Shown here one piece after another: positions 6,801 to 43,100 of a stretch of 64,000 bases of DNA. The translations under genes and the position numbers were made by a program. Origin of the DNA: Aplysia californica (taxonomy: Eukaryota); NCBI RefSeq assembly GCF_000002075.1, contig NW_004797711.1, positions 98,306 to 162,305 of the forward strand, written 5' to 3'. The stretch's first letter is position 1. Every line of letters starts with the position of its first letter. The notes below the pieces were generated by a model that saw only the letters and a list, made by a program, of their open reading frames with translations, ran no database searches and was not told the DNA's origin.

Positions 6801-8949
6801 ATGCGCATCTGTTAAAATTATGCATGAGGCAAACATACAAGTCATTAAAACTGGTGAAGAATCTCATAAAAGTTCTATTGAATCCATCATTCTTACTTAA
6901 CATTTATTTCCGGTCTAACTTCAGTCAATTTTTAACCTTTAAAAATTTGTCACCAGTGTGCGTATAAAGTACATTTTAAAAAGAATTATCTGGAAACCGG
7001 TTTAACTGCAAAACTCTTTTTTTTTGTATTTTAGTTATCAAAGTCTTTGACAGTCTACTCCCAATGCCTCGTTGTGTAATTCACATCATGATTTTTCTGA
7101 ACTACTTGGTGGGTTACATTTCTGATTTATGCCATAAATGTATGAGTCACATCCTCAATGACAAACACCCCCCCCCCCCCCCCTCCTGCACTCTCAGGGG
7201 ATACGACATCATCTTATGTCAGGAGTACCAGGTAAAAGATGTTTAGCCCATTTAGAAAGCTTTAGTCTGCAGTACATTGTGGTAAAGACTTGCGACTTTC
7301 TTTCCCAGTGGAAAGTTTCAATGTTCTGCTGTATCCGCCTCCTAATCCTACGTTCTCTGTCGTCCAGCACCAGCTGGGAATTCCCTGAGCTCACGTCGGG
7401 CAAACAGACCATGATCTCGGACTGTGACGGTCGCCACTACCCGTGGTACGGCTCCCGCAACGAGACGGTCATCTTCAAGGGGCCCTGTGACCGTTACCAA
7501 ACTGCCACGGTGTACATGAACGACAACTTCCACCCGCATGTTACCTGGAGAAACCCGGCCAATCGTCACCAGCTGGAACCCAACCTGACGCACATCATCA
7601 GGTGAGGAGAGAAAAGTGACCCCCAGTGGCGATTGTTTTTCATTAAAACACCCAAGATGTATACTGAGACAAGGACTTGAAAATCGATTATAAACTAATG
7701 CAAGGGAATAAAAAAGATGCTTCCGCAATTGCAGAATGGGTCAGTTGTTTTAAAAAAATGTATTTTGCTGATTTAATCGTAACTGATGCAGCGATGTTGT
7801 AAATGGTTTTCATGTGTATGTTCACAATTTTGGAGACAGGCTGCTTCCAGCCTAATCTTCGGCACTTATATTATTATGATCTAATTGTGTTGTAAGTACC
7901 GTAAAACTGCCTATGCCTGTGTGTCGAGCCACCAAACATTTTGATTGTAATGTAAAACAGCAATTTCTTTGAAGTAGAGCTTTGTTCTGCCTTATTGCAT
8001 TTTTTATATTCTAATGACACCATCCAAGACATTCTCTTATATATCTGAGACAACCACTTTTCTCCCCAACAGTGGGTAGCGGTCTTGGAAATATTAAATT
8101 TTGACTGGATTTCAATTTCACAGGTTGCTTACATTTACCCCCCACTTCCTCTACTGACTGAAGTGTCTTTAGGCCATTCCCAAAGGGGGGATATTAACAT
8201 GTTCTTAAGTACAGTAGAATTGTAAATGGGCTGATTTACCAATGTCATGCTCATACTGTTCCCGAATAACATAGGGGGAACTGCTGCTTTTTCTTTTCTC
8301 ATCCTTACTATCATCATTTATCCTCCACTTCTTTTGTGTGTCACTCTCTTGTCAACTGCTATTTCCGGGGTGCCTTGATGGTTAAAGCAGACTTTGTGCT
8401 GTTGAGGCTAGAGAGGTGAGTAGAGTAAGCCTGATTCCCGGTTTGGACTTCTCTGTTGACATCCATCCCTTGGCGCTCATATGACTTTTTGCACATGCAA
8501 GCGCCGTAAAACGTTACTAAAACTAAACTAAACCTCTCCCTTTATAAGAAGCAGTGGTAGATCCATATATATATATATATATATATCTTTATGTTTTCCT
8601 TCTGTTTCCCTGCAGAGACCAGAGCTTCTACGTGTGGCTGGTGGCCTGGAACATGGTCACCATGAAGAGCTTTGTCATGCAGACCATATCCTGGTGCATG
8701 CAGCTCGAGATCGCCATCGACCCGCGGCGCCCCCTGGGGGAGCGAGCCACGCTCATCAGCAACCCGGTGCCCCGCCAGCCCATCATCCTGGACTACAATG
8801 TGCCCATCCCGCGCTGCGCCCTCACCCCGCCCTGCGCCAACTCCGCCCAGATGCTGGTGTGGCACCCGCGCCGCGGCAAGCCGGTCTGCGTCATCCCGCC
8901 CGTGTGGAAGAGCCAGAGCCGCAGCCCGAAGAGGGAGAGCAAATTGTGA
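3593..8949 (+). CDS. FAM78: FAM78-like protein, 4 coding exons: 3593(or 3623)-3822, 6259-6372, 7368-7601, 8616-8949
   Basis: Spliced translation (IDKEPTQVDESSSAVLKYRTPNFR/ASATV..WKVGWIQAC..FHNTYG/SWEFPEL..ISDCDG..YPWYG..MNDNFHP.VTW/RDQSFYVWLVA..RPLGERA..NSAQMLVWHP..PVCVIPP) follows vertebrate FAM78A/B along its length. All introns are GT-AG with consistent phase. Confidence 0.92.
3950..4990 (-). mobile_element. 5'-truncated CR1-clade LINE (RT C-terminal half) in FAM78 intron 1
   Basis: SGIPQGSVLGPFLF..VNDLP..FAADDTKI, WQLRFNAEKCKVMHIG, EKDLGV, YKSVIRPHLEY, LEKVQRRATKL, RRARGDMIE, TRGHSLKL; extra codon in FADD motif and frameshift near the 3' end. Confidence 0.9.
6259..6372 (+). CDS. FAM78: FAM78-like exon 2 (absent from ORF track)
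   Basis: TTCAG|G GCG AGT..; ASATVEISPFSDNEAWKVGWIQACTDMTFHNTYGKEG; donor TA|GTGAGT. Confidence 0.9.
7368..7601 (+). CDS. FAM78: FAM78-like exon 3
   Basis: TSWEFPEL...NLTHIIR; CAG acceptor, AG|GTGAGG donor. Confidence 0.92.
8136..8530 (+). mobile_element. Interspersed retroelement family B (SINE or LINE 3' end); other copies ~12120-12415, 32416-32817, 43015-43312, 55205-55830(-)
   Basis: Shared ~300-400 bp body ending in stem-loop GGCGCTC-N20-GAGCGCC and ACTAAA tail. Confidence 0.75.
8616..8949 (+). CDS. FAM78: FAM78-like exon 4 (terminal)
   Basis: RDQSFYVWLVAWN...ESKL*; polypyrimidine tract + CAG acceptor. Confidence 0.92.
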
Positions 8950-9151
8950 TTTCCAGAACATCTGCAGAAGTATAGTGTCGAGCAAATTGTGATTCCCTGC
9001 ACGTCTCCAGAAGTATAGTGTCGAGCAAATTGTGATTTCAAACAAGATTGCAGAAGTTTAGTGTCGAGCAAAATTGTAATTTGGAGCATGTCCGAAGAAG
9101 TTTAGTGTCGAGCAAAATTGTAGTTCCGAGCATGTCCGAAGAAGTTTAGCG
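8937..9151 (+). repeat. 5 x 43-44 bp minisatellite whose first unit contains the FAM78 stop codon
   Basis: Units start at 8937, 8980, 9023, 9066, 9110; core GAAGTWTAGTGTCGAGCAAA(A)TTGT conserved, ~14-nt variable part. Confidence 0.9.
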
Positions 9152-40100: not shown

Positions 40101-43100
40101 TATGAAATAACAAAGGGCATGTTATACTTAAAGAATATGACATCAATAGAAAATCTGCAAATTTGACCCGAGTTTCGATTTTTGACCAGTATTTCCATTT
40201 GTGGATTGCGAGAAGAAACTTCTTTTGTCAGCACGCCTCACAAATTGTCTAACAATTGAACTGTGGTCTGACTGAGGTTACATGTCACTTTGTCTACAGT
40301 GGGTTGGGGGTTTTTTTGCCTTGTAGATGTGCCCTCGTTTATGACAAAAGCGCCTATGATGGGTTAATTTTTCTCTTCTTTTTTTTTTTTTTTTTTTACT
40401 TGACAGCCAAACAGGAGGATGATGAAGTGGTGTGCCAGATTGTGTACGTGTTTTATCAGATGATCTTCCACGAAGCAACCAGAGAGATCATTATCAAGGA
40501 AACTCGTATCCTTTACTTTTACGCCATCTTATAAATACTATTTTATCTTATCTTATCTTTACCTGATAGGATGTGTCTGTGGAATTTTGTTACTGGTCGT
40601 GCGAGGAACTTGAATATTCAGACTTGATCGACTCAAGAGTTGATGAATGGACAGANNNNNNNNNNNNNNNNNNNNNNNNNNNNNNNNNNNNNNNNNNNNN
40701 NNNNNNNNNNNNNNNNNNNNNNNNNNNNNNNNNNNNNNNNNNNNNNNNNNNNNNNNNNNNNNNNNNNNNNNNNNNNNNNNNNNNNNNNNNNNNNNNNNNN
40801 NNNNNNNNNNNNNNNNNNNNNNNNNNNNNNNNNNNNNNNNNNNAGAATACAACTGTTCCCCTTGTCTTGTACAGTGTTTCCGACCAGCCTTTGTGATGTG
40901 TTGATAAGGCTCTTTGCCTTTCCATGCCAAAGGCATGACTTGATTTTCATGAGAAGAAGCGCTTTTTTAATAAAGTATCTCCGTCTTGCTTCTGAAATAC
41001 TGTTTTCCCACTTTGTCCATATTGGATTTGACAGGCAGAGTCGAAGTAACCAGACAACAAGATGATCTGGATTTTGTGGATGAGGGCGAAAAACATTTAC
41101 AATCAAATGGAAATAGCCAACGGTTGCAGCGAGTTTATAAATACTGCTACTTGGCACTGGGATGAAGGTGAAAGCTCACAACTGATGAATAAATGACAAA
41201 TATACGCTTAGACGCTCACATATATGCATATTCTGGTGCAGGCACTTATAAACACCCTCAGACAGNNNNNNNNNNNNNNNNNNNNNNNNNNNNNNNNNNN
41301 NNNNNNNNNNNNNNNNNNNNNNNNNNNNNNNNNNNNNNNNNNNNNNNNNNNNNNNNNNNNNNNNNNNNNNNNNNNNNNNNNNNNNNNNNNNNNNNNNNNN
41401 NNNNNNNNNNNNNNNNNNNNNNNNNNNNNNNNNNNNNNNNNNNNNNNNNNNNNNNNNNNNNNNNNNNNNNNNCCACAAGTAGCACCCTCTAAGGCGAAGC
41501 ATCATGTTCAGATTGCTACAGACTGCTTGTTGAAAAGATGAATAAATTATGGATGAAATGTCCTGATTTGATTGGTTCTCCGCCTTGACCCAGTCCCAGA
41601 GGCCCCGGCCTATCTCATTGACCTGATGCACGACAAGAACGCCGAGATCAGAAACGTTTGTGACAACACTTTGGACATGATTGCTGTAAGTTCAAAAGTC
41701 GAACCAACAGAGATGTCTGTGTGACTGTGCTAGATATGATTGCTGCAGTTTCAAATCGAGACAAATGTCTCTATATATATGGTAACAGGCTCTTATGTGA
41801 TTGCTGTCACTTCAGACTTTGAGAAATGTCAGACTCTGGACTTTTTTTTTTCTGACTTGCAGATGAAAACATCTTAATTTTTTTTTTCTGACTTGCCTGC
41901 TGTAAGGATTTGAAAACTGATTTTAAAAAAGATAAAAACATCTTATCATATAATTTTTTAAAATCTTGCCTGCTGTAGAAATTTGAAAACTGATAAAACA
42001 TGAAAACATCATATTTTTTTTCCTTTGACTTGCAGATGAAAACATCTTTATTTTTTTAAATAATTTTTCTGACTTGCCTGCTGTAAGGATTTGAAAACTG
42101 ATAAAACAGATAAAAACATTGGGGTTTTTTTTTTTTGGGGGGGGGGGGGGGGGGTTTACTTGCAGATGAAAACATCTTAATTTTTTTTTTTTCTGACTTG
42201 CCTGCTGTAGTAATTTGGAAACTGATAAAACAGGTGAAAACATCTTATCATATCTTGTCTTTCCTGCTGTAGGAATTTGACGAGGAGTGGGCCAAGAAGA
42301 TCCAGCTGGAGAAGTTTCGCTGGCACAACTCTCAGTGGCTGGAGATGGTGGAGTCTCGCCAGCTCGACGGCTTTGGCGACCCCGGCTACATGTACCCCGA
42401 CGAGCCCGGCCTTGACCCCTACCTCCAGGACGCCGACATACTGGACCGGCCTGACCTCTTCTACGGTCAGTCCACTTCTGTCTACTCGTCCGCGCTGCCT
42501 TGCCGACTGGCGTGGGCGATCGTGGACCTCCACTTTCGACACTCTGTCCTGTGTTGCAGCGATGTTGTCTGTCAGTCTTGCTGTTCCCAGCCATGTTGTC
42601 AACTTGTCCAATATCTTTTCTCTCTGTCTGCCTCTGCCTCTCTTTCCATCAAACTTGCCTGTTGTTAAAATATTCTCCAATGCTCCTTTCCGCGTTGTGT
42701 GTCCAATGAATAATGTAAAACTCTGGTGTCTTGTGTCATTTTTCAGACTGACATATATGAGGCGTGCTGACAAAATGAGTTACTTCTCGCAATCCACAAA
42801 TGGAGATATTGGCCAGAAATCAACACTTTTGGGTCAAATTTGTTGTAGATTTTCTATTGATCCCATTTTCTTTAACTGTACCATGCCTTTATTATTTCAT
42901 ACTTATAAATTGTAAAAACTTCACCTAGAAGCGTGATGCATCTATTTCCATTTAAGGCTTGAATCCGAAAAGTAGCTCATTTTGTCAGCACGCTTCACAT
43001 ATTGTTCTTATGCATAGCAGAATTGTAAATGGGCTGATTTATAAATGTCATGCACATACTGTGCTCGAACAACATATGGGGAACTGCTGCTTTTTCTTTC

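Follow-up and report, generated by a model that had tools for sequence, protein, structure and literature searches.

Introduction

Canestro et al. in 2002 reportedly wrote the original paper on mirages. In amphioxus, these are described as minisatellite-like copies of an exon-intron boundary, either donor or acceptor, with units of 10-160 bp, in the Adh3, globin, troponin C, and PGBD5 genes (PMC3087553, PMC3902484). GT/AG is intact in many of them, several may occur in one gene, use of the first site is documented for lancelet mirages, and their mechanism is called unclear in PMC3087553. Human minisatellites whose first unit lies across a donor are listed in the introduction of PMC1557585 for F7 IVS7 (37 bp), CBS IVS13, 6-16, LMNB2, and PDGF, with first-site use documented for F7, LMNB2, and PDGF. 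In human segmental duplications, variable internal tandem repeats are found where exons meet introns (PMC2812944), and intron gain via tandem genomic duplication is reported (PMC4974935); in these systems, boundary minisatellites are material from which gene structure can be altered. Our literature search returned no study testing genome-wide whether repeats that span junctions are enriched, a weak negative given that most subscription journals lay outside its coverage. Here, we describe arrays of this kind in two adjacent genes of a gastropod, within a 64,000-nucleotide stretch of the Aplysia californica genome (the window), and count the local copies of splice sites in a 1.5-Mb sample of the same genome.

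Results and Discussion

Boundary arrays in KIFAP3 and FAM78

The 14 KIFAP3 exons at 25314-42465 and the next exon join into a single stop-free frame, and the matches of the five exons tested follow one another along PF05804 (profile positions 383-415, 417-489, 490-544, 546-586, and 620-648). For FAM78, a Pfam search with the last exon returned no family, and its identity comes from homologue alignment, in which 4 of 4 aligned molluscan homologues share the same C-terminal residue (..SKL). Since the joined frame, the order of the PF05804 matches, and the homologue C-terminus agree, the boundaries of both genes are real. KIFAP3 also contains a 1467-bp duplication with 1 mismatch, and the window has a perfect 392-bp palindrome adjoining a gap. 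At 28553-32388, exons 6-8 may be duplicated or the sequence misassembled. As shown in Table 1, the six arrays listed in the earlier note are all real on the combined evidence of TRF and a 20-nt junction probe, and five of the six span a genuine coding boundary, namely the FAM78 stop codon, the KIFAP3 exon-9, -12, and -14 donors, and the exon-15 acceptor. The sixth, at the flank of the exon-11 acceptor, is a real, degenerate array, but its repeats end before the AG and span no junction.

Table 1. Exons, tandem arrays, and inserted elements of the window, numbered from its first letter
Feature	Positions	Strand	Evidence
FAM78 last coding exon, end ..SPKRESKL-TGA	8616..8949	+	homologues share final residue
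43-bp array x4.9; unit 1 with true stop codon, copies into presumed 3' UTR	8937..9149	+	TRF
KIFAP3 exon 9 (numbering of the earlier note)	33103..33203	+	joined reading frame, PF05804 match
40-bp array x16.8 at 98% matches, 17 donor units, the first being the true exon-9 end + GTGAGT	33190..33860	+	TRF, probe
TTAA-flanked element with terminal inverted repeats, inside an exon-9 array unit; presumably a piggyBac-type MITE	33856..34610	.	
Lone exon-9 array unit between two insertions, donor copy at 34634	34606..34650	+	
Second TTAA-flanked inverted-repeat element within exon-9 array	34647..35302	.	
Final 4 exon-9 units, slightly divergent variant, 40 bp x4.3	35299..35471	+	TRF
Third TTAA-flanked element, end of exon-9 array; similar one at 45124-45434	35459..35769	.	
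Degenerate 34-42-bp repeats of exon-11 pyrimidine tract, AG excluded	37914..38165	+	TRF
KIFAP3 exon 12	38795..38920	+	frame, homology, PF05804
42-bp array x4.1; unit 1 = true exon-12 donor	38895..39066	+	TRF, probe
Three decayed ~60-bp units across exon-14 donor; copy 2 GC, copy 3 weak GT	41665..41840	+	
Degenerate units across exon-15 acceptor, 4 upstream copies	41840..42280	+	

With the junction probe, exon 9 has exactly 22 donor units (17+1+4), exon 12 has 5 (the fifth, at 39462, is decayed with 6 mismatches), and exon 14 has 3; exon 15 has 5 acceptor units, one of them the true site. The exon-9 and exon-12 copies retain GT, and each exon-12 copy brings in an in-frame stop. At exon 15, the upstream copies have acceptor motif scores of -2 to 2.5, versus 6.8 for the true, last one. 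TRF found further KIFAP3 arrays at 37117-37518, 33870-33977, and 43888-44093, none of which touches a boundary. A common core that the 66-bp and 40-bp intronic arrays appeared to share by eye was not recovered with a 27-nt probe.

The KIFAP3 donor and acceptor arrays are of the known mirage or F7 type. Units at the exon-9, -12, and -14 donors and the exon-15 acceptor span a real exon-intron boundary, the authentic site is terminal with the copies in the intron, and GT/AG is reiterated in the copies. As in the amphioxus genes, several such tandem arrays occur in one gene; what differs is that the host is a gastropod, that a stop-codon case is added, and that a control-based count in 1.5 Mb is available. 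The exon-11 flank and FAM78 arrays are not mirages, since the former misses the AG and the latter concerns a stop codon with no splice site, yet they behave alike. The account of the human minisatellites in PMC1557585 is similar in that the first unit holds the true exon end and donor with identical pseudo-donors downstream, but those are single loci, introduced there with no genome-wide rate, and their first-site use is established, whereas here it would follow by analogy. Unlike the systems of PMC2812944 and PMC4974935, KIFAP3 and FAM78 have exon ends that agree with homologues and no evident new intron or altered exon.

We also considered whether stutter at read ends or haplotype overlap at exon ends might have created the arrays during assembly. 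The assembly is gap-rich and includes the near-identical duplication and the gap-adjoining palindrome mentioned above, but the units differ from one another (77-98% matches) and the arrays are broken by transposons with intact ends. Furthermore, when a public sequencing run (X1) was assembled, the collapsed 40-bp exon-9 unit had a depth of 954 and a 6-difference variant 341, against ~34 for the flank, a result that yields no allele lengths. An artefact is thus largely refuted for the exon-9 array, although copy numbers may still be wrong, and we regard it as highly improbable overall.

Local copies favor donors over acceptors

The earlier note had proposed that arrays nucleate on exon boundaries and stop codons. 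Within KIFAP3, 4 of 31 splice boundaries carry a copy versus 17 of 378 intron sites (p=0.065), and 3 of 15 donors do so (p=0.035), both in a window picked for this very pattern. The wider count covers 1.5 Mb of motor-protein and random regions, with deep-intron sites as controls. TRF gave no clear excess among 416 exons (8 donors and 5 acceptors, with 5.4 expected per side), but it overlooks degenerate junction cases. A local-copy test based on 20-mer comparison is finer, and here 25/393 donors scored versus 95/3765 deep-intron sites, for a stratified odds ratio (OR) of 2.1 (1.2-3.6). Acceptors showed no excess (10/393; stratified OR 0.8, 0.3-1.5), donors were richer than acceptors (25 vs 10 of 393, p=0.014), and short local duplications, frequent in some parts of the genome, were nearly absent from exon interiors (9 and 1 of 1139). 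Depending on the analysis, the donor rate in the sampled regions is ~2-4x the local deep-intron rate: the OR was 3.6 (1.6-6.9) at 19/20 identity, and when controls were paired within long introns, donors exceeded them by 4.1 (1.95-8.2), with 2.8% of bootstraps at or below 2. With the four richest blocks dropped, the OR was 1.75 (p=0.09), and random blocks had a copy at 2/97 donors. Since several analyses were run, single p-values are optimistic. Predicted stops gave 0 matches, but only 3 were scored, and an ABC-transporter search produced intronless matches only and was left out of the counts. A frozen replicate of 18 helicase loci, with a low background of 4/816, had copies at 0/64 donors and 0/63 acceptors, so no junction excess independent of local background was found in it.

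The donor rate rises with the local background (Spearman 0.47 over 50 blocks, p=0.0005) by a roughly constant factor of ~2.4, from 3/204 donors versus 25/4327 background sites in poor blocks to 21/155 versus 158/2741 in rich ones. The donor excess is a regional bias rather than a universal rule, because the donor rate follows background, the rate is just as high over the first 100 bases of the intron, and the helicase replicate had none. While the arrays themselves are a known curiosity, the donor-side count is the new and useful element: across the motor-protein and random regions that were sampled, 6% of donors have a nearby self-copy, with an asymmetry between donors and acceptors.

Probable survival or a possible birth zone near donors

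The earlier note left the choice between a duplication process biased to junctions and a high background rate with survival where the reading frame is spared. The latter fits best, while the former fails as a universal rule given the helicase replicate and the dependence on background. Frequent local duplication with survival at exon-anchored donors is the explanation that we consider reasonably probable, and the five boundary arrays are likely ordinary slippage-type duplications that persisted where harmless. A segment of 20-300 bp would be duplicated side by side when the polymerase slips or when repair uses short microhomology, and the array may then enlarge through unequal exchange; for microhomology, breakpoints were looked at by eye in three window arrays. 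As in human F7, the unit in use at donors and stops is probably still the first, which would leave the copies neutral; upstream copies of an acceptor would compete with it, such that fewer are tolerated, and copies inside exons would be purged. The donor-over-acceptor asymmetry fits such first-site selection. A constrained exon end as template, or shielding of the first ~100 intron bases from indels, could keep a pair recognizable for longer and thereby multiply the local background by ~1.4-2 or more (our estimate, with no fitted model). Transposons would insert into the arrays later. The 20-100 bp intron zone is raised as much as the junction itself, and dispersed repeats are scarce there (2-17% vs 21-26%). 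Donor-like motifs far from exons are raised as well (26/714; donors OR 1.8, p=0.05).

Several observations run against the survival reading and could point instead to a mutational hot zone, where DNA up to ~40 bp from a donor is more prone to nicks, R-loops, or fork stalls and duplications would therefore arise more often; its candidate sources are G-rich intron starts, linker DNA at exon edges, and polymerase pausing. The paired excess of 4.1 rarely fell to 2 or less. Event starts peak at -30..0 of donors by 4.2-fold (2.2-7.7), an event-level count that is inflated by regional heterogeneity, and within the same introns edge density is 3.4-5.8-fold higher at -30..+40. At copy-bearing donors the intron begins with more G (0.35 vs 0.24, p=0.003), which suggests a sequence-dependent mutational part, and exon GC is higher as well. 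The persistence of the excess at 19/20 identity and the copies at 4/7 donors of C1014 would also agree with a hot zone, as would the lack of a pile-up at transposon ends, which were rejected as nucleation points with 12/1202, under background. Against it stand the empty helicase replicate, the weaker OR without the four richest blocks, the flat chance of any downstream copy across the intron (12/229 donors vs 56/923 deep sites), and intervals that overlap the survival expectation amid optimistic p-values. On this balance a hot zone is possible, if doubtful. Tentatively, in repeat-prone regions tandem duplications may truly be born more often in the ~40 bp around 5' splice sites, above all where these are G-rich, with R-loops formed during transcription or pausing at the donor as examples of a cause. 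If so, splicing signals would shape the germline mutation map, and the recurrence of mirages from lancelets to molluscs would be explained. Microsatellite neighbors were also tried as a cause and were insufficient (donors 6/52 vs 19/341, but introns 5/183 vs 90/3582). With population data, the question of mirage origin, called unclear in PMC3087553, becomes testable.

Spliced transcripts copied back beside the exon end would be another source, given that many matches end within ~15 nt of the donor. However, the copies run on into GT and intron letters rather than the next exon, implying a genomic or unspliced template, and no join of an exon end to the next exon start occurs among the listed cases. 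A short intronic overlap is in any case expected, since the intronic part drifts faster. We consider RNA templating very unlikely.

Copy structure and coding consequences

Consistent with the claim that the working site sits in the terminal unit while copies extend into non-coding DNA, wrong-side copies occur at 2/393 donors and 1/393 acceptors, and unit 1 is where the coding end falls by homology. A proposed clustering of periods at 40-44 bp did not hold, with 1/32 junction cases (range 22-291 bp) and 13/286 TRF arrays overall in that interval. Outside the window, GT/AG is reiterated in 79/85 donor copies and 23/31 acceptor copies, the GT figure being inflated by a probe that includes GT, and many donor copies have a motif score equal to that of the true site. 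The arrays give the study of splice-site choice many natural invertebrate substrates, and their decoy exon ends call for caution among gene annotators. Could they be kept as alternative sites for new isoforms, NMD-linked dosage control, or new introns? Retention of GT would suit this idea, as would the reports that in human 6-16 and CBS splicing also takes place at one or two of the pseudo-sites that follow (PMC1557585) and that introns may be created from such repeats (PMC3087553, PMC2812944). That the continual supply of alternative splice sites envisaged earlier is a useful one finds no support, however: in-frame, stop-free products result from 0/85 donor copies and 1/31 acceptor copies, periods divisible by 3 number 8/32, and use of the first 12 exon-9 downstream donors listed leads to a frameshift or stop. 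Retention for this purpose is improbable. Three raw RNA runs gave 0, 0, and 1 read at KIFAP3 exon 9, none on the exon and too few for splicing. Mismatches between exon end and copy also argue against retention, as codon positions 1-2 hold 39 of the 74 in the exon part. They number 23/248, 16/251, and 35/252 at codon positions 1, 2, and 3; the exon part of the copies thus loses its sequence at every codon position, and the pattern is the one that survival predicts, with drift confined to the copy at positions 1-2 and affecting both partners at position 3.

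Tandem arrays at gene boundaries in the window

All six tandem arrays claimed in the earlier note were found where it had placed them, at the FAM78 stop codon, at the KIFAP3 exon-9, -12 and -14 donors (exon numbering is that of the note), at the exon-15 acceptor and in the exon-11 acceptor flank, although in this last case the AG is not part of the array. The exon-9 donor array consists of 22 units (17+1+4) interrupted by two inverted-repeat elements with TTAA flanks, and a further such insertion lies at its end; MITE, piggyBac-type and SINE-like are labels that we presume to fit elements here. 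The collapsed 40-bp exon-9 unit is present at high depth in a public sequencing run (X1, probably DNA), and thus the array is not an invention of the assembly (927 Mb, 4332 contigs), in which the window occupies positions 98306-162305 of contig C441. The exon-12 donor carries four units and a decayed fifth, the exon-14 donor three decayed units and the exon-15 acceptor four acceptor copies upstream, and the FAM78 stop codon lies within unit 1 of a 43-bp array. The KIFAP3 exon ends are verified by an open frame, Pfam order and a 41/41 match to a homologue, and the FAM78 coding end by its conserved C-terminus; the nearest homologues of both are from the heterobranch gastropods Elysia, Lymnaea, Biomphalaria and Bulinus. 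Within KIFAP3, copies occurred at 4/31 splice boundaries vs 17/378 intron sites (p=0.065). Arrays of this sort that span a splice junction are the mirage of amphioxus (PMC3087553, PMC3902484) and the F7-type VNTR (PMC1557585). The kind of array is therefore known, and what is new is a modest quantitative result; our literature search found no genome-wide enrichment test of junction-spanning repeats, which is weak evidence of absence.

Local copies at splice sites in a sample of the genome

We sampled 16 blocks of 50 kb (800 kb, two blocks flanking the window) and a further 800 kb surrounding myosin and kinesin genes found by Pfam, together 1.34 Mb of non-N sequence, and left the window out of every enrichment count. 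A self-trained exon finder yielded 433 exons at score 20 (38 on reversed sequence), 161 of which coincide in frame with Pfam hits. A site scored when the 20-mer across it was repeated with at least 17 identities towards the intron, at a distance of 12-300 bp, and had no copy in the opposite direction; low-complexity 20-mers were masked, and the repeat mask was partial (20% of bases). Local copies were found at 25/394 donors vs 67/2854 control sites. Most of the cases inspected were clear; of the 25 donor hits ~4 are doubtful, and these were retained here, in the stratified ORs and in the analysis of background dependence. The Pfam-verified donors gave 10/159 vs 19/1080, and acceptors 10/395 vs 72/3005. 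With non-repeat deep-intron sites as the reference, stratification by block gave an OR of 2.1 (1.2-3.6) for donors, or 3.6 (1.6-6.9) at 19/20 identity, and of 0.8 (0.3-1.5) for acceptors, which showed no excess. The analysis shows the location and polarity of the duplications, their donor-acceptor asymmetry and their purging from exons, whose interiors carried copies at 9/1139 and 1/1139. The enrichment anticipated from Tandem Repeats Finder was not clearly present: its arrays alone overlapped 8 donors and 5 acceptors, where 5.4 would be expected on either side.

The dependence is also regional. The donor rate tracked local background across sample blocks (rho 0.47), standing at ~2.4x background in rich and poor blocks alike; random blocks had copies at 2/97 donors, and removal of the four richest blocks left a donor OR of 1.75 (p=0.09). 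Donor-like motifs outside exons scored at 26/714, intron sites 40-80 bp in were raised as much as donors (46/728), and the any-copy rate was flat (12/229 donors vs 56/923 deep-intron sites). In a replicate of 18 DEAD-box loci, with exon model and test frozen, copies were found at 0/64 donors and 0/63 acceptors (background 4/816 and 2/696). By hand arithmetic, 0/64 has p ~0.015 if the genome-wide rate is 6.4%, and a simple junction rule is therefore rejected; a 2-4-fold donor factor is neither confirmed nor refuted, because it predicts only ~1 hit.

Periods and splicing were examined in a hand-curated list that left out the window and comprised 25 donor loci and 11 acceptor loci, four of these 36 without a copy by probe. 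Nearest-copy distances ranged from 22 to 291 bp, with multiples of 3 in 8/32 and only 1/32 within the supposed 40-44-bp cluster. Nor is the proposed supply of useful alternative splice sites supported: an in-frame, stop-free product would result from 0/85 donor copies and 1/31 acceptor copies, copies inside one locus being non-independent. Overall, the interpretation in the earlier note is partly supported.

Possible explanations: survival versus a mutational hot zone

Duplications may be born via slippage or repair at microhomology and arrays may grow by unequal exchange, with the first site used and anchored pairs surviving longer. Decay is of neutral type, with 74/751 mismatches between exon end and copy overall and 35/252 at third positions (23 loci, two in the window); these rates give an anchoring factor of about 1.4 for substitutions only, which could reach ~2 once indels and deletions are counted. 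The first 100 intron bases are depleted of dispersed repeats and are therefore probably older sequence. A mutational hot zone near donors is a serious rival. Among the results that count against pure survival are a paired donor ratio of 4.1 (1.95-8.2) in introns of at least 700 bp, G-richer intron starts at hit donors, and event starts peaking at -30..0 (4.2-fold, 2.2-7.7) and 0..40 (3.4-fold), although regional heterogeneity pushes both event-start figures up. The event-start, G-content, any-copy and long-intron analyses were run after removal of one duplicated block and of three exons that had proved false. Microsatellites were ~2x denser in the first 200 bp past donors (0.06-0.07 vs 0.03, genome sample), often as (GT)n extending from GTGAGT.

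Other loci and assembly features

Contigs C1025 (block L152) and C596 (L150-151/L222) carry the same myosin exon and flanks, probably an uncollapsed haplotype. The KIFAP3 exon 6-8 duplication is either very recent or a haplotype misassembly. Contigs C54, C220, C90, C981 and C2371 hold several ABC-transporter frames that lack introns and are 1100-2400 codons long, with a cluster on C54; these are retrocopies, horizontal transfer or contamination.

Coordinates of additional features in the window and on sampled contigs
Sequence	Position	Strand	Feature
Window	15910-16702		perfect 392-bp inverted repeat, 9-bp spacer, adjoining N stretch; likely fold-back assembly artefact
Window	19257-19745; 21598-21787	minus	two exon-like stretches, presumably resembling an N-terminal methyltransferase (NTMT1-like) gene
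Window	28553-30019; 30284-31750		tandem duplication of KIFAP3 exons 6-7 with a portion of exon 8, 1466/1467 identical
Window	29898-30283; 32003-32388		second full copy of KIFAP3 exon 8, 380/386
Window	45751-45909		22-bp x7.6 array, no predicted exons nearby
Window	57929-58823		large 53-bp x17 array, no predicted exons nearby
C441, block L011-L015	12551-13043	minus	43-bp x11 array across predicted acceptor, ten AG-bearing copies upstream of it; gene adjoins window
C1014 1-10000 (L203)	3597-9620		kinesin gene, copies at 4/7 scored donors; two arrays iterate exon end and variable (GT)n or (GGGA)n spacer ~5-10 times
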